A stretch of DNA of 46,011 bases from an uncultured Methanosarcinales archaeon. GTDB taxonomy: Archaea > Nanobdellota > Nanobdellia > Woesearchaeales > JAGVZT01. The DNA lies in contig CAYQPU010000010.1 of NCBI GenBank assembly GCA_964419615.1, forward strand, positions 1 through 46,011, given 5' to 3'. Position 1 is the stretch's first letter, and each line of letters begins with the position of its first letter. The notes below the pieces were generated by a model. That model searched no databases. It saw nothing but the letters and a program-made list of their open reading frames with translations, and was not told where the DNA came from. This document shows, piece after piece, positions 7,923-46,011 of this stretch. Made by a program: the position numbers and the translations under genes.

Positions 7923-8825
7923 ATGAATACTAAAGAATTTTTAACACATCAATTTTTTTATGGAAAAGACATCCAGAAATGGATAACAGTTTTTGAAGAT
8001 CAGCCTTATAACAAAGTTCCTCTGATAAACCAAGCACTCCCTCTTGGAAGAGAAAGCTTTAGAGGTTATCCAATTGAATTCTTAACAAGAAAGGCTCATA
8101 TGGAACAATTCAAAAAAATGAGTGCATGGGAAGTTGTAAAAGAAGTTGCAAAAAAATGCCCAACAATGAGTAGACTCCCATATGAAGTCAGGCGCATTGC
8201 AGGTTCTGTAAATGTCAGCATAACAGAAGAACATTATGGTATAGAAAAAGAGGCATTTATTGACTGCTTAACTAAAGCAGCAGATCATTTCACAAGAGAT
8301 GCATCTCACCCAATTGATAGGCTAATTGCATCCCAAACAAGTGAACATGTAATGCCTAAAGGCTATCCTAATGTGGATGTGTATGTTGAAACATATATTC
8401 AAGGTTTCTCAGAGGACATCAATCTTTGGTGGAGTTTTATGTCTGAGAAAAACCGCTGGCTGAATGGAGTAAACACACCATATAAAGTAATGCAAACATT
8501 CTCAAAACATGATAACATCTTTGACAATGTCAGATACAATTTGTATGAGAGAGTAGAAAGAACTGGAGCGCTAGACTACTTGGAACCAGTTCTTGATGGT
8601 CGATTTCAATTGTTCATGCAAAAAGATAAGCCTGCAGCTTTTATCAGCTATATGTATAGAGATAATAGAACAATCATTGCATTTATTGATCCTGAAATTG
8701 AAGACATTAGTTACTGCAAAAGACTTCCTAGTTATCTAAAGCGCTACAAACACTTACAATCAATGAGTATTTTAGAGCATGATAAAGATCCTATTGTTCA
8801 TGAAGTTCAAGAAAAACAAACCTAA
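7923..8825 (+). CDS. Hypothetical protein
   Basis: About 300-aa ORF, divergent from Lrp. First ATG at 7923. Confidence 0.7.
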   Translation: MNTKEFLTHQFFYGKDIQKWITVFEDQPYNKVPLINQALPLGRESFRGYPIEFLTRKAHMEQFKKMSAWEVVKEVAKKCPTMSRLPYEVRRIAGSVNVSITEEHYGIEKEAFIDCLTKAADHFTRDASHPIDRLIASQTSEHVMPKGYPNVDVYVETYIQGFSEDINLWWSFMSEKNRWLNGVNTPYKVMQTFSKHDNIFDNVRYNLYERVERTGALDYLEPVLDGRFQLFMQKDKPAAFISYMYRDNRTIIAFIDPEIEDISYCKRLPSYLKRYKHLQSMSILEHDKDPIVHEVQEKQT

Positions 8826-9476
8826 TTATTCCTCAAATAATCCTTTAATAACAATCCTGGATCCACCAGTAAAACTAGTAATCCACCACATTGCATTCCA
8901 CAGAACCATATCTCCAAGATCTTGTTTTTTCTGGATTAATGTATCTGCATTTGCCTGATCATTATTCATATAAAAATTAGCTCTGCATTGTTCCTCTGCA
9001 GTTTCAATAACATAACCTAATCTCTCTCTGTATTCAGTCATAGCTTCAGGACTAGCTTCTTTTTGCACAGGTATCTGTGTAAGTAAACCAGAAATACTTT
9101 CTATATAATAATCACTCTGATAACCTAATTGGTCAGAATGTTCTACTGCAACCTGTAAGGCATCTGCTAACACCTTTCTTGCTTCTTTTGGTTCTGGATC
9201 AACTTCATAAGTCCAAAAAGGGAGAGTCCAAATTCTTTCAGTATGAACATCAAGTTGCTCATTTGCTTCACTTAATCTACCAATTAAAGATTTATTCTGT
9301 CCTGAGAAATTATTAATTCCAGCACACGTATCTCCACCTAATGTCTCAACAATGGGTGGAATATCCGATTTTGTATAATAAATACCATAATCTACAGCTT
9401 GTACAATAGCACCTACAGCCAAAACTCCTGCAATTCCTACATAACCATAAGCCAAAATTTTTAATATTCCTGTCAT
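8826..9476 (-). CDS. Hypothetical membrane-anchored protein
   Basis: N-terminal hydrophobic helix (ILAYGYVGIAGVLAVGAIV) and a second hydrophobic C-terminal segment. Confidence 0.65.
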   Translation of the reverse strand: MTGILKILAYGYVGIAGVLAVGAIVQAVDYGIYYTKSDIPPIVETLGGDTCAGINNFSGQNKSLIGRLSEANEQLDVHTERIWTLPFWTYEVDPEPKEARKVLADALQVAVEHSDQLGYQSDYYIESISGLLTQIPVQKEASPEAMTEYRERLGYVIETAEEQCRANFYMNNDQANADTLIQKKQDLGDMVLWNAMWWITSFTGGSRIVIKGLFEE

Positions 9477-9611
9477 TTTTATGTAATTAACTGATAATTC
9501 ATTCAAATTTAAATATTTAAACATATAATTAACCAGTATAATTGGAATTTTACCTATTATTTTCCTTTTTTTACGTAAGTCACATAATTATTATTAATAA
9601 AAAACCAATCT

Positions 9612-9649
9612 CACTGGACCACTGGACACTCAAGCATTAGGTTTTTAAA
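9612..9649 (+). promoter_or_regulatory. uvrA promoter with tandem direct repeat
   Basis: CACTGGAC x2 at 9612-9627, upstream of TTTTTAAA (9642-9649), which lies 30 nt before the uvrA ATG. Confidence 0.4.
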
Positions 9650-9671
9650 CACAGTGAAATAAGCTACATAT

Positions 9672-12470
9672 ATGGATAATATCATAATTAAAGGAGCTAG
9701 AGAACACAATCTTCAAAACATAGACATAACTCTTCCAAGAGACAAATTCATAGTCATAACAGGTTTATCTGGAAGTGGAAAATCAACTCTAGCATTTGAT
9801 ACATTATATGCAGAAGGCCAAAGAAGATATGTTGAATCATTATCTGCTTATGCAAGACAGTTTCTTGGCTTAATGAACAAACCAGATGTTGACAGCATAG
9901 AAGGATTATCTCCAGCAATATCAATACAGCAAAAAACAACCAGCAAAAACCCAAGAAGTACAGTTGGAACAGTAACTGAAATCTATGATTACCTAAGACT
10001 TCTATATGCACGAATTGGAATCCCACATTGCCCAATTCACAAAATAAAAATTGAAGCACAATCTCCTGAAAAAATATCAAAAAGAATACAGGCAGAAATC
10101 AAAGGAGAGGTAACAATCCTTGCTCCAATCATACGTCAAAAAAAAGGCACATATGAAAAATTAATCTTAGATCTAAATCAACAAGGATACACTAGAGTAA
10201 GAATAAACAAAAAAATACAAAGAACAGACAAAAAAATCAATCTAGATAGATACAAAAAACACGATATAGAAATTGTAATTGATAGATTGGATTCAAAGGA
10301 TAAATCCAGACTATCAGAAGCAATTGAAAATGCAATCTCTCACACAGAAGACATTGTAATAATCCTAGACAAAAACAACAAAGAACACTTATTTTCCTCA
10401 AAAATGGCTTGTCCAAAATGTGGCATGGCTTTTGAAGAACTAGAACCAAGAATGTTTTCATTTAACAGTCCATTTGGTGCCTGTCTAACTTGCAGTGGAT
10501 TAGGAGTTCTAATGGATTTTGATCCAGACCTAATCATACCAGACAGATCAATATCAATAGCAGACGGAGCAATAGCTGTATACAGAAATGCAATTGATGG
10601 TTGGCGAGGTCAATACCTTGGTGCAGTTGCAAGACACTTTGGCTTTGATGTATTCACACCAATAAGTTTTCTTTCAGATGAAAATGTGAATATTCTTCTA
10701 TATGGATCAAAAGAAAAAATCAAATTTAACATGACCATGAAAAATGGTGATGCTCAATGGTCACATAAAGGCTATTGGGAAGGATTAATACCTCAATCAG
10801 AAAGATTGTATCATCAAACAAAATCAGACTATAGAAGAAGAGAACTAAGCAAATTTATGAGAACAAAACAGTGTCCTGAATGTGAAGGTAAGAAACTGAA
10901 AAACAAAGTCTTGGCAGTCACAGTCTCAAATAAAACAATATCAGAAATCACTGACATGCCAATTAAAAACAGCATTAATTTCTTTAATAACCTAACACTT
11001 TCAGAAAAACAATCACAAATAGCAACACAAATCCTAAAAGAAATTAGAGAAAGATTAGAATTCTTGTCAAAAGTTGGACTTGAATATCTAACCTTATCAA
11101 GAAATGCAGGTTCCTTGTCTGGAGGCGAAGCTCAAAGAATAAGACTAGCAACTCAAATTGGGTCTAATTTAATGGGAGTAATGTACATACTTGATGAACC
11201 CTCCATTGGCCTACATCAAAGAGATAATCATAAACTAATAGACACACTCCACAGATTAAGAGACCTTGGCAACACACTGATTGTTGTGGAACATGACGAA
11301 GATACAATAAAAAGAGCAGATCATGTAATTGATCTTGGACCCGGTGCAGGGATCTTTGGTGGAAAAGTAATTGCACAGGGCACACCAAAACAAATTGAAA
11401 AAAATTCAAAATCTCTCACTGGTCAATACCTGGCTCAAAAACTGTTAATCCCTGTTCCTAACAAAAGAAAAAAATCAAATTCAACAATAACAATAGCAGG
11501 TTGTACTCATAACAACTTAAAAAATATTGAAGTAAAAATCCCAACCGGAATTCTAACACTAATCACTGGAGTTTCTGGTAGTGGAAAATCAACCTTAATC
11601 TATGAAATACTGTACAAAGGCATGATGAAAAAACTAAATAATTCAAGAATCATGCCTGGTAAACATAAATCAATAAAAAATGGCAATATTGACAAAGTAA
11701 TTGTCATAGATCAGAGTCCAATTGGAAAAACTCCTAGAAGTAATCCTGCAACCTATACAAAAGTATTTGATCATATCCGAAATTTATTTGCATCGACAAG
11801 CGAAGCAAAAATAAGAGGTTATAAACCAGGAAGATTCTCATTTAATGTTATAGGTGGAAGATGCGAAGCTTGTAGTGGAGACGGTCTGATAAAAATTGAA
11901 ATGAATTTTCTGCCTGATGTATATGTGGAATGTGAAGAATGCAAAAGCAAACGCTACAATGAAGAAACCTTGGAAGTTAAATTCAAAAATCATTCAATCT
12001 CAGATATTCTAAACATGTCAATTGATGAAGCAATAAAAGTATTTGAAAACATTCCCCCAATTAAGAGAAAACTTGACACACTTGTAAGTGTAGGTTTGGG
12101 ATACATAAAACTAGGTCAGAGTTCAACCACACTTTCAGGAGGCGAAGCTCAGAGAATCAAACTAACAAGAGAACTCTCAAAAAATGCAACAGGAAACACA
12201 TTATACTTGCTTGATGAACCAACAACTGGTCTGCATTTTCATGATGTAAGCAAACTAATCAAAGTACTTAATGATCTGGTAGAAAAAGGTAATTCAGTTG
12301 TTGTAATCGAACATAACTTAGATGTAATCAAATCAGCAGATCATATAATTGATCTTGGACCTGAAGGTGGAGATGAAGGAGGGACAATAGTAGCACAGGG
12401 AACACCTGAACAGGTTGCAGATAGCAAAATATCTTATACTGGGCAATTCTTAAAACCTTTGTTAAAATGA
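9672..12470 (+). CDS. uvrA: Excinuclease ABC subunit A
   Basis: Two ABC modules (GLSGSGKS, GVSGSGKS, LSGGEAQRI, LDEP) and CxxC zinc sites. Confidence 0.99.
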   Translation: MDNIIIKGAREHNLQNIDITLPRDKFIVITGLSGSGKSTLAFDTLYAEGQRRYVESLSAYARQFLGLMNKPDVDSIEGLSPAISIQQKTTSKNPRSTVGTVTEIYDYLRLLYARIGIPHCPIHKIKIEAQSPEKISKRIQAEIKGEVTILAPIIRQKKGTYEKLILDLNQQGYTRVRINKKIQRTDKKINLDRYKKHDIEIVIDRLDSKDKSRLSEAIENAISHTEDIVIILDKNNKEHLFSSKMACPKCGMAFEELEPRMFSFNSPFGACLTCSGLGVLMDFDPDLIIPDRSISIADGAIAVYRNAIDGWRGQYLGAVARHFGFDVFTPISFLSDENVNILLYGSKEKIKFNMTMKNGDAQWSHKGYWEGLIPQSERLYHQTKSDYRRRELSKFMRTKQCPECEGKKLKNKVLAVTVSNKTISEITDMPIKNSINFFNNLTLSEKQSQIATQILKEIRERLEFLSKVGLEYLTLSRNAGSLSGGEAQRIRLATQIGSNLMGVMYILDEPSIGLHQRDNHKLIDTLHRLRDLGNTLIVVEHDEDTIKRADHVIDLGPGAGIFGGKVIAQGTPKQIEKNSKSLTGQYLAQKLLIPVPNKRKKSNSTITIAGCTHNNLKNIEVKIPTGILTLITGVSGSGKSTLIYEILYKGMMKKLNNSRIMPGKHKSIKNGNIDKVIVIDQSPIGKTPRSNPATYTKVFDHIRNLFASTSEAKIRGYKPGRFSFNVIGGRCEACSGDGLIKIEMNFLPDVYVECEECKSKRYNEETLEVKFKNHSISDILNMSIDEAIKVFENIPPIKRKLDTLVSVGLGYIKLGQSSTTLSGGEAQRIKLTRELSKNATGNTLYLLDEPTTGLHFHDVSKLIKVLNDLVEKGNSVVVIEHNLDVIKSADHIIDLGPEGGDEGGTIVAQGTPEQVADSKISYTGQFLKPLLK

Positions 12471-16304: not shown

Positions 16305-17588
16305 TTAATTCTTTTTTGTCAGACTGATACACATTCCAGCTGCAACAGTTGTACCAGAATCTCTGATAGCAAATCTCGCCATTTGTGGAATTTCTTTTTG
16401 TGTTTCAAGCACTACTGGTTGAACTGGCTTAATCTTGACAATTGCAGCATCTCCATTCTTAATAAAGTCTGGATTCTCTTGAAGAGTTTCACCTGTTTTT
16501 GGGTCCATCTTCTTTTCAATTGCTGTAATTTGACAAGCCACCTGAGCTGTATGAATATGGAACACTGGTGTGTAACCAACAGTCACAACAGTTGGATGGT
16601 TAAGCACAATAATCTGCGCTGTAAATTCAGTTACAACAGAAGGTTGATCTTCTTCTGGTCCAATAACATCTCCTCTTGCAACATCTTTTTTACCAAAACC
16701 TCGAATATTAAAGCCAATATTGTCTCCAGGAATAGCTTCTTGGAATTGCTCATGGTGCATTTCAATACTTTTACATTCACCAACAATACCTTTTCCTTCT
16801 CTACCCGGTACAGCTATCACTTTTTGACCAACCTTCATTGTTCCTGTTTCAACTCTTCCAACACAAACAACTCCAATTCCTTTGATATTGTAAATATCTT
16901 GGATAGGTAGTCTTAATGGTAAGTTAGTTGGTTTATCAGGAACTTTTAAGTTGTCAACAGCTTCAAATAGAGTAGGACCTTTGTACCAGTCCATATTCTC
17001 GCTCTTATTGAAAACATTATCTCCTTTTAATCCTGAAGTTGGAACAAATGGAACCTCCTCAGGTTTATAACCAACAGTTTTTAATAAATCTTCAGTTGCC
17101 TTTTTAACAGCATCAAACTTTGCTTGGTCAAATTTGACAACATCCATTTTGTTAACAATAACTATTAACTGGTTTACACCAAGAGTTCTTGCTAAGAAAA
17201 CATGTTCTTTAGTTTGAGCCATGACTCCGTCATTAGCTGCAACAACCAAAACACCTGCATCTGCTTGTGCAGCGCCTGTAATCATGTTTTTGACAAAATC
17301 TCTGTGTCCAGGTGCGTCAATAATTGTGAAACTGAATTTTGGTGTTTCAAACTTCTTATGAGCCAAATCAATTGTAACTCCTCTTTCTCTTTCTTCTTTA
17401 AGCTTATCCATCACATAGGCAAACTCAAAACCTGGCTTACCAAGCTCTTTTGCCAAATCAGTCAACTTTCTCATGGTTTGTTCATCAATATTCTTTGAGT
17501 CAAATAACAATCTACCCAAAGTTGTGGATTTACCATGATCTACATGTCCTATAAACACAAGGTTCATATGTTCTTTCTTACTTGCCAT
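16305..17588 (-). CDS. tuf: Translation elongation factor EF-1alpha
   Basis: [26 protein letters not shown]; archaeal type. SD GAGGTG upstream. Confidence 0.99.
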
Positions 17589-17731
17589 TTTTTAACCCCA
17601 CCTCATTAATATAATCATTTAGTGAATGGGAGGTGTAGACCTATATTTATAAATATTTCGCTAATATAAATATTAAACGAGCAATTGCAGCTCATCCCTA
17701 GAAAAATTCAAAAAATCAGATATTTTAGTTT

Positions 17732-19282
17732 TTATTTAACTTTCTGCACAGGAACCAGAGTCTCATTATATATATTCAGAAAAACCGGATTAACCTTAAC
17801 ATAATATATGGGCTCATCAGCTTTATGCATGAAATCAGCTAAACCAGCGCTTGTATTCAATCCCAAATCATATCTCTCATTTAAGTTCTCCCTGTACCAC
17901 TCTAATTCCAATAAATCTCGATATATAACCACTAGATCCTCTCTTTTTTGCTCACAAACCTGATAATACCAAACCACAAAACACTGGTCATCATACTCAC
18001 ATATCAAAGTGACATTTTCAGGTAACTGAAATATATACTCTGCAAAAAGCTCAGTTTGGTAAAAACCACTTCGATCCAGATCCTGTGGATATAATAAATG
18101 ATAAACAAGTGGTGTGTTTTTATCATCATTTAAAATAAGATCATAGCTATCCACCTGCACAACCTGGGGATAAATAAAAAGAATTTTAATCAGAATCAAA
18201 CCAGCAATAACAACAACAGCACCTTTCACATCCCTTAGGTGTTTTATCAGCATCAAAACTCCAAAAGCAATCAGAACTGCAAAAACAAAATAGCTTGGTA
18301 GAAAATGCACAACCAGATCATAGGTATAATAATTAACAAATTGAATCACATTAACAAACATAATCATACTAAACAATAAAAGTATTTTTTTATCAGTGTT
18401 CCAAAGATAATAGATCCCAATAAGACTCAGACCTAGCAGCAAAGGGAATTGTCTTAATAAAAACACAAAGAACAACCTAAACTGATGGCCAACTTGAGAT
18501 CCTGGCAAAGAATAAAACCTCCAATGATTATCCTTATCACTAATCAAATCAATAAAATTCCCAAAAGTTTCAGGGTTCCCCCAATCTATTGCTGGATCAA
18601 ACGCAGAAGCTATTGGCAAATACAAATATAAGCTAAATGGAATCATAAACAACAAAAACATTGTTGCAACCAGCTTTAAATTAACCTTGCGATTCCACAA
18701 AATAAAAACAATAAATGCTGGAGCTAAATTAATATTTGAAAGATGGTGTGAAACAGCAAAACCATAAATTAAGCAAAACAAAAACAAATTTTTTTTGCCC
18801 TTTGTTTTACTCCACCTGATAATCCAATAAATGGACAAACTCATTAAAAAAACACTTAAAGTATAAACCTCAGTAATAGTAGCTTGACTCCAAAAAGTAT
18901 ATGATGTCCCAAACAAAACAGCAGCAAGTAAACTGATTTTTTCATCAGCAAATTCCTTTACAATCAAATAAACAACAGAAACAGCCAAAGCTCCAAAAAA
19001 AGCTGACATCAAGTTAATTCTTACTGCGATACTCCCTATTGGAATTAATGTAAATAATTTACCAATCAAGATATATAAAGGATAGCCTGGCCACTGAGCA
19101 ACACCAGTTGAGCAAATCGCAGCAGTAAGTTCACCAGAATCTCCCCAAAAAACTGATGGAGATAAAGTTCTTAAGTAAAGTAAGAAAAACACAATAAAGA
19201 TTCCAACTGGGAAAATGAACCAAGGGATTTTTTTTGGCACAAATTTAGTAAATTGCTTTTTAATCCTTTTTTTAAAGTTCAT
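17732..19282 (-). CDS. DUF2723/TMEM260-like GT-C glycosyltransferase (putative protein O-mannosyltransferase)
   Basis: Polytopic membrane protein with GDSGEL...GVAQWPGYPLY, HHLS and WGNP motifs. Confidence 0.8.
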   Translation of the reverse strand: MNFKKRIKKQFTKFVPKKIPWFIFPVGIFIVFFLLYLRTLSPSVFWGDSGELTAAICSTGVAQWPGYPLYILIGKLFTLIPIGSIAVRINLMSAFFGALAVSVVYLIVKEFADEKISLLAAVLFGTSYTFWSQATITEVYTLSVFLMSLSIYWIIRWSKTKGKKNLFLFCLIYGFAVSHHLSNINLAPAFIVFILWNRKVNLKLVATMFLLFMIPFSLYLYLPIASAFDPAIDWGNPETFGNFIDLISDKDNHWRFYSLPGSQVGHQFRLFFVFLLRQFPLLLGLSLIGIYYLWNTDKKILLLFSMIMFVNVIQFVNYYTYDLVVHFLPSYFVFAVLIAFGVLMLIKHLRDVKGAVVVIAGLILIKILFIYPQVVQVDSYDLILNDDKNTPLVYHLLYPQDLDRSGFYQTELFAEYIFQLPENVTLICEYDDQCFVVWYYQVCEQKREDLVVIYRDLLELEWYRENLNERYDLGLNTSAGLADFMHKADEPIYYVKVNPVFLNIYNETLVPVQKVK

Positions 19283-39277: not shown

Positions 39278-39377
39278 ATTTATGTAAAATTCTTTCATCT
39301 AACAAAATTGATAAATTATACATAAATATATAATTCTAATTAGATTCTCTTTTGCTAAACAATTGACAAGTAAGACT

Positions 39378-39827
39378 ATGAATGCTCAAGATAAATTAAG
39401 GGAATTAAACATTTACTTAGATTCAATAGAAGCTGTTTTTCAAATATTTGAATCTTCTACAAATTACGCTAAGTTTGAAGATAACTGGAGAAAAAGTACA
39501 GTATATAATGCAACTGGACTGGATCAATTCTTAACTGCGTTTTTTTACAGGATTCAAGAAAAAGATGAAAGAATTGTAGTGGATGGTGTGAAAACTCTTG
39601 GGCAATACATGGATGAGCAAATAATAAAAGAATACTTAACAACAGATGGAGATCCTACCATGATCTTCTTCTCAGGTTACCCTGAAATTTCAATTGATAA
39701 AAGAAACAAGTTTTTTGATGAAGCTCGGCAATTTTCTTTAGATACTGTACGGGAGTATTTAGGTATTAAATCAACTAAACATCAATCCCATAATTATCAA
39801 ATAATAAATCCTCAACAGATTCTTTAA
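39378..39827 (+). CDS. Hypothetical protein
   Basis: About 150-aa ORF; its 3' end overlaps the convergent PolB-like gene by 53 nt. Confidence 0.6.
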   Translation: MNAQDKLRELNIYLDSIEAVFQIFESSTNYAKFEDNWRKSTVYNATGLDQFLTAFFYRIQEKDERIVVDGVKTLGQYMDEQIIKEYLTTDGDPTMIFFSGYPEISIDKRNKFFDEARQFSLDTVREYLGIKSTKHQSHNYQIINPQQIL

Positions 39828-42726
39828 TCCCCAAAGCCTTGCATAATTTCATCAAATTCCTGTTCTTTTCAAAAGCCCATTCAAGATAATATGGAATATG
39901 AGGAACTTGTGTCCAGGAATCTGGATCACATGCATCAACAACATTAACCTCAAGACTATGACCATCCATGCTACTCACAATCATTGTCCTACTCTGACCT
40001 CCCTCAAGTCCCATAAAATCTAAGATCTTAAATCTTCTTGTAGATCTAGATTTAATTGAATAATTTGGAGCATCTTTTCCAGGATTAAGTGTCATAAAAA
40101 ACTCTTCAGTAGGGAGTTTATCTAAATTTAGAATTTGGTCATGCAAGTACCCTTCAGCCCCTTCAGATCCTTCTTTGATAGAAGTGATAACAAGATCATG
40201 AATCCATTTATCATAAAAATTTGGATCGAATCCTTTTAGCATTGAATCAGGGGTATGCCTTTTTTTTGGTGTCTGCATTTTAAATCCAACAGAAGCAAGA
40301 TGACTTAATTCATCTTCTCTTAATTGATATGCAACACTTCCTCTAGCCATAGAAACAACATCACCTGCGCCAACAAAAATATAACCTAATTCTTCCAGCT
40401 CCTCAACCAGTCTAGGATCATTATCTACAAACAAATAATCTCCAGTGTAATTAATAATCTCAGCATTCTCTAAAGGCAAAACCAAATCATCCATAGATTT
40501 CCTAAATTCACTTAACAAAGTATTAGCATTATTCCCATATCCTCCTTGCGTACCATACCTGTAATAAAGTGCACCATCAGCTGGTGAGTCAGTTTCCATG
40601 GATGTTTTTGCATCAAGTAGATAATAGACAGCCAAATTGTCAAGAATCCTCTGAATAAAGATCCTCTCCATCTTATCATCGGACTCATTTAAAGTAGAGT
40701 ATAATTCGTTAAGTATTGGATGCTTAATTATTGTTGAAACAGATGTCTCTGTGAAAAAAGGAGTATAAAACAATGCAACATCCCTAAACAATCCTCTCTG
40801 ACATTTGAGTTTCTCCTCTGATACTCTTTCATAAGCCATTGAGAGTGCTCTTGTCTTACTCCTATCAAGATTAAATTTGTCATAATGATTTGAACTCACC
40901 CAGTTAGGAATTACCCCCTGTTCTTGGGAAAATTTCCTTTCCCAAACCAATGAAGCAACCTTTCTGGGAGTAGAGTGAAACAAAGTGTCAAATTGTATTC
41001 CAGTTATGTCTTCAACTTTCTCCATTATCGGAACTAACGCATTTATAATCTTTAGTTGATTTATTGTATCACCTGCACCATATTCAACTGCATCTCTTGC
41101 TCTATTAGCATCAGCCTCACCATCCTCAACAGCTAATTCCACTTGGTTGTAACCAGGGATAGATTTTTCAAATTCAATGCCTGCACCAGAAAAAAAATCT
41201 ATTGCAGCAGACAATGATTCAAGCGTGCCATCTAGTGTCAGCAGAGCCAAATGAAATCTTGCAGCATATAATGTATCTGCTCTAGGAATAGTACCATCAA
41301 ACTGAATTGGCCAAGCCTGTGACCTGAACTTAATGGGTGAATTATCATTATTCAAAAGACACATTTTTTGATCCTGTGTAAACAATTTAACAAACAAATT
41401 CTTTTCTCGAAGTTCCTGAGGCAATTCAGCAATAGCATTCGGATCTCTATTCGGATTCATTGATCTTGATGCATCATAACTCCAAGTGTTATGTCCTCCT
41501 GTTCTACTCAACTGAAACATCTGGTGAAACAAAGAAAAAGTTCTAACAACAAGATTTGCGTCAGGTTGCTGAATATACAACATTCTCTCACCAGATTCTA
41601 GTTCAACCCAATCAGAACCAATATCCAAATATCCAATTGCAACATCTGTCAAAGGCCATTCTATATCTGGTGGAAATTCAAACAAAGGACTCTCAAATTC
41701 TTCAATACCTTTATTTGCTGACAAAGCAATAAGCCACACCCTTGGATCAATGGGGATATTCTCATCTGGTGTTCTAATACTCCCTCTATAGCAAGTTGTT
41801 TCAATATCCCATGAACCATTGTTGTGAGCAGTATCATCCTTTCCATCCAAAAACTGAATCTGTGAAATATCATATCCTCTTAGTAAAATATCAAAAGAAT
41901 AATCCCTGAAATTAGGTCCAAATTCTCCTCCTAACTCAGTTATCAGAGCAAAAACATCACTATCAATCTCAATTAATTCCTGCATCAATGCTCCAACTTC
42001 ATGAGGTAAATCCCAAATATGGTCTTCAAAAGCTGACCTCAATTCTCCAACTCGATTTGATAAAGCCCGCTTTTTATCTGCTCGGATGCACCATAATTCT
42101 TCAATGTCAGGCGGCATTTCTTTTCTATTACCAACTAAAAAATCAATATACTCTTCAGAATCAGGACAAGCAATCCTCAGATCATCCTCTGCCCAAATTA
42201 TCTCTTGTTCAGAATCAAGCAAATAATAATCTCCAATAAGTCTCATTATCTTATGTGCTCTATCTTGAATTAGCATTGCTTGTACAATTCTATCATCAAT
42301 CTCAACTGGTTTTGTCCAATCAAAAAACAATCTTAACCATTCAGTGTATCCAATTGGTTTAGTACTAAAAAAATTATTAGGCACTCCCTCAGCTAAAACA
42401 TCCACTAGACTATTTGAGTTACCATAAGTTTCAATATGTACATGTCGTTTATTTTGGGAATAATGGAAATGTCTAATATCATATTTTTGTCCAATAATGC
42501 TCTTATCTAAATCCCTTTCTAATGTATCTTCAATAATCTGTGCAGTTATTTTATCAGAAGCAAGATTTGGATCATTCCGGCTCTCAATTGGAATAGGAGC
42601 ATGTGTTTGGTAAACTTTTGGCATTGGTACAGTGACCGGCCCCAAATTTTGATCCTGTTTTCTAAAATAAAGCTTAGCCCAAGGCATGTCTTCAAATCTT
42701 CGGGTAGAAACCTTCAAAACTCTCAT
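39775..42726 (-). CDS. Family B DNA polymerase-like protein with intact 3'-5' exonuclease motifs and inactivated polymerase motifs
   Basis: ExoI WDIETT, ExoII GHNTWSYD, ADTL, ExoIII YGAGD. Motif A region GLFRDVALFYTPFFT (no DFxSLYP), motif C IINYTGDYLFV (no YxDTDS). Thumb-like LNPGKDAPNY and PYYLE. Confidence 0.75.
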   Translation of the reverse strand: MRVLKVSTRRFEDMPWAKLYFRKQDQNLGPVTVPMPKVYQTHAPIPIESRNDPNLASDKITAQIIEDTLERDLDKSIIGQKYDIRHFHYSQNKRHVHIETYGNSNSLVDVLAEGVPNNFFSTKPIGYTEWLRLFFDWTKPVEIDDRIVQAMLIQDRAHKIMRLIGDYYLLDSEQEIIWAEDDLRIACPDSEEYIDFLVGNRKEMPPDIEELWCIRADKKRALSNRVGELRSAFEDHIWDLPHEVGALMQELIEIDSDVFALITELGGEFGPNFRDYSFDILLRGYDISQIQFLDGKDDTAHNNGSWDIETTCYRGSIRTPDENIPIDPRVWLIALSANKGIEEFESPLFEFPPDIEWPLTDVAIGYLDIGSDWVELESGERMLYIQQPDANLVVRTFSLFHQMFQLSRTGGHNTWSYDASRSMNPNRDPNAIAELPQELREKNLFVKLFTQDQKMCLLNNDNSPIKFRSQAWPIQFDGTIPRADTLYAARFHLALLTLDGTLESLSAAIDFFSGAGIEFEKSIPGYNQVELAVEDGEADANRARDAVEYGAGDTINQLKIINALVPIMEKVEDITGIQFDTLFHSTPRKVASLVWERKFSQEQGVIPNWVSSNHYDKFNLDRSKTRALSMAYERVSEEKLKCQRGLFRDVALFYTPFFTETSVSTIIKHPILNELYSTLNESDDKMERIFIQRILDNLAVYYLLDAKTSMETDSPADGALYYRYGTQGGYGNNANTLLSEFRKSMDDLVLPLENAEIINYTGDYLFVDNDPRLVEELEELGYIFVGAGDVVSMARGSVAYQLREDELSHLASVGFKMQTPKKRHTPDSMLKGFDPNFYDKWIHDLVITSIKEGSEGAEGYLHDQILNLDKLPTEEFFMTLNPGKDAPNYSIKSRSTRRFKILDFMGLEGGQSRTMIVSSMDGHSLEVNVVDACDPDSWTQVPHIPYYLEWAFEKNRNLMKLCKALGIKESVEDLLFDNYGIDV

Positions 42727-42750
42727 TATAAAGTAGTAAAAACAACAAAC

Positions 42751-42760
42751 TATTTATAAT
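42751..42760. promoter_or_regulatory. Bidirectional TATA box between the polB-like gene and the 360-aa/Cas4-like operon
   Basis: TATTTATAAT reads as a TATA on both strands, 28 nt from ATG 42781 and 33 nt from ATG 42726, in a 54-nt gap. Confidence 0.5.
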
Positions 42761-42780
42761 CTTTTTCATTCTAAGAGCAT

Positions 42781-43863
42781 ATGCACCAAGGAAGAGTACT
42801 TACTGATCCAATGGGAAATGGTCCTGGAAGAATGTTAGGATTGGCTAGCGCTTATGTTACAATCTCAGAAGACAAGACTTTTGAGAAAAATCCAGAACTA
42901 TTACCAGTACATAAAGAAGCAAAAGCTACTTTAGAAAACAATTTTGTAATGGGCCCCTTGGAGCAATACATCTTATACCATAATGCAATTTCATACCTAG
43001 ATGATTATCTTCGAGATTTATTTAGAGATTCAATTGTAATATTTGTTCCTAGTTTAACTGCCACATCTTATGAAGAAAAAAGAATTATTGGATCAGATGA
43101 ATTTAAAACAGAACTAATGCCTTATTCATCAAATAGAATTGGTGCAGATATAACAAGTCTTTTTAGTGTAATTGGCGCAAAACTAAGAGATATGTGTACT
43201 CAACTTCAAATTGATTATGAGCGTGATTTGTCATCAGGGGATTTTAGACCCGAGGAAGCTTCTAAGAATCTTTTATTTATTCCAGTAGCACCCTTCTTAT
43301 CAGTTGTATCTTTTGATGGACTAACAATAAGAAACATATTTGGTGAAAACATTGAGCTCAATGATGATACATATAACATAAGAGAACAGGTAAATGCTGT
43401 TATGGATCAAAAAGGAAAAATAACAATGGGTTCAACTGTTCTGGAAGGCATAACAGAAGCACCTTTTTATTGGTACCTTCCAAGTTTCATAGACAAGGAT
43501 GCTGCAGCAAGGTTTTATAGGAAACATGATATGACTTTTTCAGAATACAAATCGCAAGTTTCATTATACACAAGATATAATAGATTATTAATATCTGAAA
43601 TGTATGCACACCTAATAAGTTTGCTACCAGAAGAAACAGAAGTTGTTCCCTTCCTATGTAAAACTTCTCCATTAACAGACATCCTTCATCGAGCAGCCAG
43701 AAAAAATAATAGATTGCTGTATGACTTAAATATAATGGATAATGTGAAGGAACCAATAATGGGTGAAGCTTCACTTGGAGCAATTAATATTCTTCGCCAA
43801 TACATAATCCACCAAAGAGTGGGTCAAAGAAAAACTCTAAGAAGAGACACTTTTAGAAAATGA
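42781..43863 (+). CDS. Hypothetical protein, translationally coupled to the nuclease
   Basis: 360-aa ORF; ATGA overlap with the next gene. Confidence 0.7.
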   Translation: MHQGRVLTDPMGNGPGRMLGLASAYVTISEDKTFEKNPELLPVHKEAKATLENNFVMGPLEQYILYHNAISYLDDYLRDLFRDSIVIFVPSLTATSYEEKRIIGSDEFKTELMPYSSNRIGADITSLFSVIGAKLRDMCTQLQIDYERDLSSGDFRPEEASKNLLFIPVAPFLSVVSFDGLTIRNIFGENIELNDDTYNIREQVNAVMDQKGKITMGSTVLEGITEAPFYWYLPSFIDKDAAARFYRKHDMTFSEYKSQVSLYTRYNRLLISEMYAHLISLLPEETEVVPFLCKTSPLTDILHRAARKNNRLLYDLNIMDNVKEPIMGEASLGAINILRQYIIHQRVGQRKTLRRDTFRK

Positions 43864-45194
43864 GCAAAATTAAATCCTGTATGAAGTATCTAAGCATTGG
43901 ATGTTCTCTACCTCAGGGACCCCAAACATGCTATAGTGATGACTTTCCATGTATGGCAGACTATCTATCATATTTACCAAAGTTTTACAGAGAGACTTTT
44001 ATTGAGGATGCACGGATTGAAGGATATCGGATGATCGGTGCAGAAGATCTAATTTGGCAGCTTAACCACTATAATGCAATTATAAAAAAATCAGATCACC
44101 AAGAAGGCACTCTTAAACAATTAACTCAGAATAATCCCATCATACCTTGGGCTATCGCTGTTGCCCAAGATTTTCAGACCAAAGTGGATTCTTATATTCA
44201 TTATCATGGAAGACCTAGCCAATTTAGTTCATCAAAATGTCCTTTGTCAGTCCTAATGAGTAATCTAGATCAGGATAAGGTTCAGCAAACTACTGATCTT
44301 GAGATTTTGGAAGTTAGAGAAACTATAGCTGGCAGCATTAGGCATGATATCGCATCAGCACCCACATTAAGATACCTACAAACACCTTTAATGCATCAGC
44401 ATCCTGCATTCTGGGAATACAAAACATTAAGACAAGATTACACTGAAAAGAGAGTGGCATACATTTTATCACTCGATGAGATCACAGATAATGGTTTATC
44501 TGAAGATTTAGATAACCTATTTAATTTTATGAAAGGTGGCAAACTTAAAGGTCTGGAAGTTTGGGACATGACAACTTTTCAATATGAAAGAAGTCACTAC
44601 AAAGAATGGTTTGAATCTTTAGACATGAATTGGAGGGAATTTGGAATAAAGGAGTACGTATTCAAAGGAACTGCAGACTTAATTATGACTCTAGCAAATA
44701 CAGGTGAGATAATAATTGGTGACTGGAAAAGAGCAAGATTCCAAAAAAACTCATTTGACTTGCAAACTTCTCTTTATGCTTTGGCAATAGAACAAATGGC
44801 TTCAATGTTCTCGCCTCAATATCTATTAGTTCTTGGAATTAATCGGTTTGGTAATAAAACTGATGACTATAATCTACCATCATTACACATAAGACTGCTT
44901 GAAAGAGATGATATTCTTACCAAGACAGCTAAATTAAAAGCAGTGTTTCTTCATACAGTAATGGCTACACTCATAGATAATCCTTCTCACTTTTTGAAAT
45001 TAAGAGAACAGCAAAGAGTAATAAGGCCAAGCAAGTACAAAGATCACTCTGAAATGATGCATTGTGACGATCTTTTTACAGGAAGCGCATGTATCAATCA
45101 TAGAAACAATATGTGTCAAGCAGTCTCTGAATTTATCCAAGAAGGAGGAGATTTGAATGATTTATTAATTGAAGGTTTTCAGCCGTGGACCTAA
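43860..45194 (+). CDS. Cas4/RecB-like PD-(D/E)XK nuclease, possible Fe-S cluster
   Basis: FKGTADL...IIIGDWK...DLQTSLYALA; SKCP upstream and C-x8-C-x7-C at the C-terminus. Confidence 0.8.
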   Translation: MSKIKSCMKYLSIGCSLPQGPQTCYSDDFPCMADYLSYLPKFYRETFIEDARIEGYRMIGAEDLIWQLNHYNAIIKKSDHQEGTLKQLTQNNPIIPWAIAVAQDFQTKVDSYIHYHGRPSQFSSSKCPLSVLMSNLDQDKVQQTTDLEILEVRETIAGSIRHDIASAPTLRYLQTPLMHQHPAFWEYKTLRQDYTEKRVAYILSLDEITDNGLSEDLDNLFNFMKGGKLKGLEVWDMTTFQYERSHYKEWFESLDMNWREFGIKEYVFKGTADLIMTLANTGEIIIGDWKRARFQKNSFDLQTSLYALAIEQMASMFSPQYLLVLGINRFGNKTDDYNLPSLHIRLLERDDILTKTAKLKAVFLHTVMATLIDNPSHFLKLREQQRVIRPSKYKDHSEMMHCDDLFTGSACINHRNNMCQAVSEFIQEGGDLNDLLIEGFQPWT

Positions 45195-46011
45195 CCAAAA
45201 TGACCTTGGTTTGTTATATCCTCTAAATGCCTGAATGCTTTTTCTTCACCACCCCTTCTTTCTACATTAAAAATATAATAAGCCAAAGCAGCTTTTGTGA
45301 CTGGAGTCAAATTGTGACCATTATGGGCAAGTGTCCTTTCAATCATTCCAGGATCCTTACTAATAGCTTCAACAGAATGAGTAAAGTAATGATTACCTCT
45401 TTTTTTAAAAGATTCCTCTAGTTCAACAAACATATTATCTAATTTCAAATAACCAATAAGATGGTGTCTCTTATGCAAAGACCCCTCAAATTTATCAGTT
45501 GTCACATAGGCCAATATTCTGAAATCATCTGCTGCAAAATGTTTATCAACTTTGAGCTTTAATTCCTTTTTTAAACCAGAATAAAATGAAGTATGGGGAT
45601 CTTCATTTGGACACACACAAAGCAAATGCCTCCAACCTTGACTATAAACAGAACCAATCCCTCTTTGAGAAAGTACAATTGCATCCATAGTTTCAATTAA
45701 AACATCCAATTCCAGACCTGCTGATGGAATCCCTTGCCCATCAAAAGCTTGAGCATAATCTGGACTTTTGCATGCAACAACACTGGAATAATCAATTAAC
45801 TGAATTGGGAGTTCTAATCTTCCATCTTGAAACTGTGGATCAGAAGAGGGAGCAACAGTGGGCCCATCCCATAAAATTGATTTGTCTTTTTTGGAGTTTA
45901 GAGCGTGGCTTTGAGTTTCACGATCTCTATTAATGAAAAATTTTTTTCCAGTGGCTGTCTCTAACCTCCCTTTTGTATCTTGAATAACTTTCAACCAATA
46001 TTCTTTTCTAA
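45191..46011 (-). CDS. 5'-partial hypothetical protein, possibly a degenerate Nudix fold
   Basis: The frame stays open to the window edge (RKEYWLKVIQ). VLIETMDAIVLSQRG...YSQGWRH...GLKKELKL loosely follows the Nudix pattern but lacks a canonical Nudix box. Confidence 0.5.
   Translation of the reverse strand, partial: RKEYWLKVIQDTKGRLETATGKKFFINRDRETQSHALNSKKDKSILWDGPTVAPSSDPQFQDGRLELPIQLIDYSSVVACKSPDYAQAFDGQGIPSAGLELDVLIETMDAIVLSQRGIGSVYSQGWRHLLCVCPNEDPHTSFYSGLKKELKLKVDKHFAADDFRILAYVTTDKFEGSLHKRHHLIGYLKLDNMFVELEESFKKRGNHYFTHSVEAISKDPGMIERTLAHNGHNLTPVTKAALAYYIFNVERRGGEEKAFRHLEDITNQGHFG

Follow-up and report, generated by a model that had tools for sequence, protein, structure and literature searches.

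The 46,011-nucleotide (nt) stretch analysed here, contig CAYQPU010000010.1 of assembly GCA_964419615.1 (hereafter the window), is low-GC archaeal DNA (~33% G+C) assigned to the Woesearchaeales, and it encodes on its reverse strand a protein of 983 amino acids (aa), P0001, which is related to family B DNA polymerases (PolBs). Divergently upstream of it lie two partner genes, encoding an alpha/beta protein and a Cas4-like nuclease. The open reading frame (ORF) of P0001 is uninterrupted, and its coordinates and frame had been given correctly (39775-42726, reverse strand) in an initial annotation that proposed a polymerase-dead, exonuclease-intact PolB. The window also contains genes for a ribosomal protein, Rpb7 and valyl-tRNA synthetase, and the closest relative of P0001 is labelled Candidatus Woesearchaeota. 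On another contig, the host genome (1.48 Mb, 99% complete) encodes a normal PolB of 806 aa, in which the DIET, SLYP and YGDTDS motifs are intact and the C-terminal sequence resembles a PIP (PCNA-interacting protein) box; PolD DP2 is present as well. Since the genome carries both an intact canonical PolB and PolD, we regard P0001 as an accessory paralogue.

The relationship of P0001 to PolBs is detectable only with a family profile and not by single-sequence methods. The protein had no match in Pfam, NCBIfam, PHROGs or PADLOC scans, and across the genome the Pfam models DNA_pol_B (PF00136) and DNA_pol_B_exo1 (PF03104) matched the canonical PolB only; phmmer with the single P0001 sequence found no match in the PDB, and BLASTP against the genome's own PolB gave no significant alignment. 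An exhaustive phmmer search among 1.84 billion cluster representatives recovered 34 relatives, 30 of which were used to build a profile, A1. Searched against the PDB, A1 matched Thermococcales PolB with an E-value of 5.6e-22, covering the exonuclease (chain residues 132-378) and the thumb (622-733) and leaving palm and fingers uncovered, and in an hhalign comparison with 23 canonical PolBs of the same order it aligned over 693 columns (probability 99.5%, E 3.6e-21). The AlphaFold (AF2) model obtained from A1 has a predicted local distance difference test score (pLDDT) of 92 and a predicted template modelling score (pTM) of 0.90; Foldseek retrieved family B polymerases only (E ~1e-15, probability 1.0), and VIA-align paired residues 2-964 of the model with residues 1-747 of KOD polymerase with a Z-score of 21.7 over 634 aligned residues. 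As hhalign, Foldseek and VIA-align all return a PolB, the possibility raised earlier that the protein might not have this fold can be set aside, and on the predicted structure we consider the PolB fold, thumb included, to be established. The domain order (N-terminal domain, exonuclease, palm, fingers, thumb) is that of PolBs. The helical insertion before the exonuclease, also noticed in the initial annotation, is likewise confirmed: it spans ~120 aa, its helices as assigned by DSSP cover residues 145-186, 191-197, 206-235 and 242-265, and it has no counterpart in canonical PolB.

All the motifs of a DEDDy exonuclease are present in P0001: Exo I (DxE), Exo II (NxxxF/YD) and Exo III (YxxxD). We assessed their conservation by aligning 59 non-redundant family members to the family hidden Markov model (HMM). 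The Exo I residues D307 and E309 and the Exo II residue D418 are each found in 54 of the 54 sequences covering the site, while in Exo III Y549 is present in all 57 sequences and D553 in 56 of the 57. The sequence GGHNTWSYD supplies both N413 and D418, the former being invariant or near-invariant throughout the family. The claim that the three exonuclease motifs are intact, which had been made for P0001 itself (with DIET, part of WDIET, at 41808-41797), thus extends to near-invariance across the family. With a complete and strictly conserved DEDDy site, P0001 is best read as a predicted 3'-5' exonuclease.

The polymerase site presents a very different picture. Its motifs were located through the HMM-HMM alignment (probability 99.5%) and predicted secondary structure, not through superposed coordinates, and the fingers region is the least certain stretch of that alignment. 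The column of the catalytic aspartate of motif A is occupied by Y654 in P0001 and never by Asp in 57 family sequences (Tyr in 25, Phe in 8, Ile in 6, Leu in 5, others in the remainder), in line with the earlier claim that this residue is lost, and the steric-gate Tyr column holds T659. As for motif C, the first aspartate is gone and the second position is D763 in P0001, so that the proposed loss of the catalytic aspartates holds for the first of them only; across the family this position is Asn in 22 sequences, Asp in 16, Lys and Tyr in 4 each, and Glu and Gly in 3 each. The stretches originally designated motifs A and C correspond to residues 646-659 and 759-764. For motif B, the reported loss of Lys and Asn stands, neither having a conserved counterpart, while that of the YG pair may not: a near-invariant Y724-G725 is its possible remnant. 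The KxY motif falls into a deletion in the hhalign alignment, the palm strands bear no acidic residue that is conserved in the family, and a fingers helix carries conserved acids (D696 and D705, at 40612-40641, in most of the family) where polymerases have basic residues that bind the triphosphate.

These substitutions bear directly on whether P0001 might still be a DNA or RNA polymerase with an unconventional active site. The retention of D763, the conserved D696 and D705 on the fingers helix and the precedent of PolB2 and piPolB, with their single motif C aspartate (PMC7544198, PMC8764526), could be taken to point that way. However, the motif A aspartate is missing in every member, most members have Asn, Lys, Tyr or Gly in place of D763, motif B Lys and KxY are lost, and the fingers have acidic instead of triphosphate-binding basic residues, which makes us consider residual polymerase activity very improbable.

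Conservation among relatives is no lower in the palm and fingers than in the rest of the protein; identity to the homologue P0002, for example, is 49% there and 44-60% in the other domains. This indicates that the scaffold is under selection and not decaying. Residue conservation across the 59 sequences stands here in place of the ratio of nonsynonymous to synonymous substitution rates (dN/dS), because even the closest orthologue at our disposal shows just 52% protein identity, so that synonymous sites are saturated. Conservation of palm, fingers and thumb would also suit a non-catalytic scaffold or sensor that binds DNA and recruits or regulates a partner nuclease, similarly to the C-terminal half of Pol epsilon or poxvirus F12, and inactivated PolB modules with structural roles are indeed known (PMC2669801, PMC4304020). 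The invariance of the five DEDDy residues over ~55 very divergent sequences is, however, hard to explain without catalysis, and the known scaffold-type relics have lost these residues; we therefore regard a purely structural role as improbable.

The family is well separated from canonical PolBs: its members score at least 90 bits with the family HMM and canonical PolBs at most 57 bits, and in a tree confined to the family and the canonical PolBs of the order it forms one strongly supported clade apart from the latter. A clear member is encoded in ~28 of 401 genomes of the phylum, and ~20 further genomes have probable members (the 28 include one unpublished genome, G333, on which no conclusion rests); canonical PolB was detected in 40 of the 41 sampled genomes of the order. 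The members that we looked up are named 'hypothetical protein', with the exception of one JGI entry named 'TPR repeat protein'. In some genomes the PolB-like gene is split into an N-terminal-domain ORF of ~240 aa and the rest, and in others it has one in-frame TAA or TAG near the N-terminus (L072:10357-11067 with 8559-10388; matches in G159:C7 and G028:C21). Many family C-termini (P0006, P0021, P0023, P0009, P0011 and others) end in Q-x-x-L(F) or Q-L-x-L, which may be PIP-like; the C-terminus of P0001 (...FDNYGIDV) has no such motif.

The PolB-like gene has conserved company. In 18 of 21 distinct loci examined with jackhmmer, the pair of partner genes lies immediately upstream of the PolB-like gene and is divergently oriented, while the outer flanking genes vary between the 21 loci; the module is retained within several genera. 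In the window, the frames of partners 1 and 2 overlap by 4 nt (ATGA, 43860-43863), suggesting that their translation is coupled. A single fused protein of 665-845 aa takes the place of the two partners in nine loci, which by the Rosetta-stone argument indicates that they act together. The subclade to which the window belongs has split partners and its sister and deeper clades have mostly fused ones, so that fission is probably the derived state. The short spacer between the divergent genes contains one near-palindromic TATA-like element (TTTATAA, 42753-42759) at 22-33 nt from both start codons, and the same layout, with 43-56 nt spacing, recurs in 11 other loci. Judged from the sequence, this arrangement fits a shared bidirectional promoter producing leaderless mRNAs. 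A TTTTACTACT-like stretch directly upstream of the PolB-like start codon recurs in the distant loci L005, L006, L069 and L082. The conservation of divergent partners argues that P0001 does not act alone but belongs, as a subunit, to a module with more than one nuclease.

Partner 2 matches sequence models only weakly (PF12705, 24.7 bits; PADLOC Cas4, E 0.038). D273, D288-x-K290, Q302...Y306 and the cysteines C127, C402, C411 and C419 are invariant in 9 sequences, providing a PD-(D/E)XK site, a QxxxY motif and the four cysteines of an iron-sulphur (Fe-S) 'staple', the spacing of which is unlike the classical CX2CX5C; an additional cysteine trio is found near the N-terminus. The model of a fused homologue (pLDDT 88) resembles Cas4 (8d3l_I, Z 11.1; 4ic1, E 3.8e-4) and also matches the nuclease domains of AdnAB, AddB and MGME1. 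A search with the Pfam model for Cas1 (PF01867) found none in the host genome, in which we detected neither cas1 nor CRISPR, and since Cas1 is absent we classify partner 2 as a solo Cas4-like Fe-S nuclease; a link to CRISPR adaptation was discarded on the same ground. A second, separate Cas4-family gene lies in the host genome at G000:C4:31135-31485. The genome likewise has no match to the Pfam models for uracil-DNA glycosylase (UDG, PF03167) or NurA (PF09376). We considered and dropped the idea that the module replaces NurA, because NurA occurs in 12 of 28 genomes with a clear module and in 128 of 401 overall, which is no anti-correlation.

Partner 1 has no family match in Pfam, NCBIfam, PHROGs or PADLOC scans. 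Its profile found nothing in the PDB, nothing in Pfam even at an E-value of 10 and, among 5.8 billion proteins, just 4 sequences, all of them family members; the ESM Atlas returned sub-threshold matches only. The N-terminal domain of the fused-homologue model aligns with AF0587 (2q07) with a Z-score of 9.0 over 138 residues, and with SMUG1 and SMUG2 with Z-scores of 5.3 and 4.4, respectively; unrelated alpha/beta hydrolases score similarly. The AF0587 domain is one that we take to be UDG-like, and a UDG-like fold of partner 1, suggested by this structural model, is only a lead. Two attempts to extend it gave no support: hhalign of partner 1 against 20 family-4-type UDGs of the order yielded a probability below 1%, and canonical UDG is encoded in 7 of 17 genomes with the module compared with 23 of 41 sampled genomes of the order, with no clear complementarity. 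A UDG match in a related genome (G405:C74:1302-1769) contains 8 in-frame TGA codons; this genome has 6% contamination, and the contig may be a contaminant contributed by an organism in which TGA is a sense codon. The features of the locus are listed in Table 1.

Table 1. Features of the P0001 locus, in window coordinates
Feature	Coordinates	Strand	Basis
PolB-like gene P0001, 983 aa	39775..42726	-	uninterrupted ORF
N-terminal domain, residues 1-145	42292..42726	-	hhalign to PolB N-terminal domain; VIA-align from residue 1-2
Helical insertion, residues 146-265, four long helices	41932..42291	-	DSSP; unaligned in hhalign
3'-5' exonuclease domain (predicted), residues 266-600	40927..41931	-	profile match, hhalign
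Exo I, D307-I-E309	41800..41808	-	family alignment
Exo II, N413...Y417-D418	41473..41490	-	family alignment
Exo III, Y549-G-A-G-D553	41068..41082	-	family alignment
Degenerate palm and fingers, residues 601-830	40237..40926	-	hhalign; fold conserved without catalytic set
Motif A remnant, G645-LFRDVALF-Y654...T659	40750..40794	-	hhalign column mapping
Motif C remnant, T761-G762-D763, in a beta-hairpin turn	40438..40446	-	hhalign; strands 757-760, 764-768
Thumb domain, residues 831-983	39778..40236	-	profile match to PolB 622-733, hhalign
Divergent intergenic spacer, 54 nt	42727..42780	.	one central TATA-like element
Partner 1, 360 aa, alpha/beta protein	42781..43863	+	jackhmmer on loci, gene maps
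Partner 2, 444 aa, Cas4-like PD-(D/E)XK Fe-S nuclease (predicted)	43860..45194	+	PF12705, motifs, fused-homologue structure

Two further ORFs adjoin the module. A 154-aa frame with a TTG start (39363-39827, forward strand) overlaps the PolB-like gene in antisense at its 3' end and is probably spurious. A 267-aa ORF (45191-45994, reverse strand) has no family match and is conserved only in a relative of the same genus (L005, 311 aa); in L005 an RFC-like AAA+ gene comes after it, and the contig of the window stops short of that point.

The genomic setting of the module speaks to its origin and use. Repair genes neighbour it in independent loci, namely an HhH-GPD glycosylase gene (L066:7850-8491), an AP endonuclease 2 gene (L073:6064-6894), an Ogt-like gene together with MutS (L006:15458-15754 and 17549-18958; the Ogt-like gene is a DNA_binding_1 match) and RFC; other flanks are housekeeping genes, and the module holds the same position across genus and family (window, L005 and L006). 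PolBs are common in archaeal mobile elements, and P0001 could in principle be the decaying remnant of one, from a casposon, a pipolin or a virus. This is extremely unlikely: the frame is intact and all its domains are conserved, the genome has no Cas1, the context is of the housekeeping type with no integrase nearby, and the viral structure library BFVD gave only generic PolB matches and nothing closer.

A more serious rival, and the main one, is that the three genes together serve as a defence against viruses or plasmids, in which invading DNA, whether linear or replicating, would be broken down jointly by the PolB relic and the Cas4-like nuclease. A patchy distribution and strong divergence would suit defence genes, a part in defence pathways that are yet to be characterised has been proposed for the solo Cas4 genes of DPANN archaea (PMC5704561), Fic, AAA_14 and PIN genes neighbour the module in one locus, and the module shows no sequence similarity to any named repair family. 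The genes have, however, no PADLOC match; their flanks are mostly housekeeping or repair genes and not defence islands; the position of the module is kept as just described; and we recognise no component that could discriminate self from non-self. On balance we hold a defence function to be possible, if unlikely.

Because the DEDDy site is strictly conserved, the scaffold is retained, the polymerase determinants are lost and the gene is linked to that of a nuclease, we favour the reading that P0001 is the exonuclease subunit of a two-nuclease complex; more precisely, we put at about one in two the probability that it serves as the subunit with 3'-5' exonuclease activity in a complex that processes or repairs chromosomal DNA. 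Repair is favoured on account of the housekeeping context, the kept position and the repair-gene neighbours. An earlier reading of P0001 as a DNA-clamping 3'-5' exonuclease survives as the best one, with the amendment that the protein would be a subunit of a module with conserved partners and not a stand-alone enzyme. What the analysis demonstrates is sequence homology and fold, the conservation of residues, and the linkage and fusion of genes; our proposal for the activities, the complex, its substrates and its cellular role, deduced from sequence and gene context, runs as follows. The whole PolB scaffold would be kept as a DNA-binding platform that places a 3' end in the intact DEDDy two-metal site, nucleotide addition being impossible. 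P0001 would be co-expressed with partners 1 and 2 from the shared bidirectional promoter and most likely works in a complex with the alpha/beta protein and the Cas4-type nuclease. This would constitute a helicase-free two-nuclease machine with a division of labour: trimming of the 3' strand would fall to the PolB relic, and cutting or trimming of the 5' strand or flap to its Cas4-like partner. Its likeliest setting would be chromosomal DNA repair or end processing in Woesearchaeales.

Several observations weigh against this proposal. D763 is still present at a key position of motif C in P0001, and by analogy with PolB2/Dpo2, calls of a dead polymerase made from sequence can fail. A subclade of three loci (L075, L078 and L079) has no partner anywhere in the genome. 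The repair-gene neighbours are found in a minority of loci only, the module is not complementary to the absence of UDG or NurA, and the patchy distribution and strong divergence among members would fit a defence gene as well.

A more elaborate version of the exonuclease-subunit reading, which is speculative and in our view quite unlikely in its full form, is a helicase-free excision or end-processing pathway of DPANN archaea that combines glycosylase-like recognition, Cas4-type incision and resection by the PolB relic. In such a pathway a lesion or unusual base would be detected by the alpha/beta domain, and the incision would be made by the Cas4-type Fe-S nuclease attached to it; after resection of the 3' strand by the PolB exonuclease, gap filling would be left to the normal PolB or PolD. 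P0001 would thereby act as a trans-acting 'proofreader without polymerase'.

Few enzymes have been studied as thoroughly as the family B polymerases, and the natural 'dead' PolBs known so far are described as having lost both active sites. If our reading is true, a proofreading-only PolB on a full scaffold, linked to a Cas4-type nuclease, represents a new reuse of a replicase. It would also provide a function for a part of the puzzling 'solo Cas4' set of DPANN archaea, and enlarge by one component the set of proteins, still poorly known, with which these organisms of reduced genome maintain their DNA. Mechanistic and biotechnological studies would moreover gain a naturally occurring PolB that is exo-plus and pol-minus. 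Our literature searches found no description of the P0001 family. The PolB census of Kazlauskas et al. (PMC7544198) reports six new archaeal groups, and its searched passages make no mention of one in which the polymerase is dead while the exonuclease is intact.

By both profile (Thermococcales, E 5.6e-22) and structure (KOD, Z 21.7), the closest known relatives of P0001 are the B3-type PolBs of Thermococcales (Pfu, KOD, Tgo and P. abyssi), with which it shares the domain order and the intact DEDDy exonuclease. It differs from them in lacking the motif A Asp, in having TGD for DTD and in the loss of the motif B Lys and Asn and of KxY, as well as in its ~120-aa helical insertion, the lack of a Pfam DNA_pol_B match and the dedicated nuclease partner genes. 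Unlike the genome's own PolB, it has no C-terminal PIP box. From the PolBs of casposons and other mobile elements it is set apart by the absence of Cas1, the housekeeping flanks and the lost polymerase motifs, in a comparison that did not extend to a search for terminal repeats.

PolB2/Dpo2 offers another parallel, being an accessory PolB paralogue with substituted polymerase motifs that sits in a small conserved module and is thought to take part in the DNA-damage response. PolB2 lacks Exo III and does not conserve Exo I (PMC4104785, PMC7544198), but retains the Asp of motif A and one Asp of motif C (PMC7544198); called inactive from its sequence, PolB2/Dpo2 later turned out to be active as a translesion extender (PMC8764526). 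P0001 displays the opposite pattern, with its exonuclease intact and the polymerase set, including the motif A Asp, gone. The partners of PolB2 are arCOG07300 and an inactivated RadA (PMC4104785, PMC7544198); those of P0001, unlike the PolB2 operon, are the 360-aa and 444-aa proteins, and there is no RadA-like Pfam match among its neighbours (arCOG07300 itself was not searched for). The initial annotation had set P0001 apart from PolB2 proteins with their eroded exonuclease, and both the state of the exonuclease and the neighbouring genes agree with this.

Reuse of the fold after loss of the polymerase has precedents in the C-terminal half of Pol epsilon, in chordopoxvirus F12 and in the helicase-fused PolB of polinton-like viruses. 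These three inactivated modules are described as lacking the catalytic residues of polymerase and exonuclease alike (PMC2669801, PMC4304020, PMC5499653), whereas the family of P0001 strictly keeps its exonuclease site. Partner 2, for its part, resembles the Cas4, AddB and AdnAB nucleases in its D...DxK and QxxxY motifs and in its one upstream and three C-terminal cysteines, and differs from Cas4 in its additional N-terminal cysteine-rich region and its fusion to an alpha/beta domain. Two predicted nucleases of opposite polarity recall the end processing performed by AddAB and AdnAB; in contrast to these and to Cas4 systems, however, the module of P0001 comprises no helicase domain and no cas1 or CRISPR, and its second nuclease is a PolB-type DEDDy domain.

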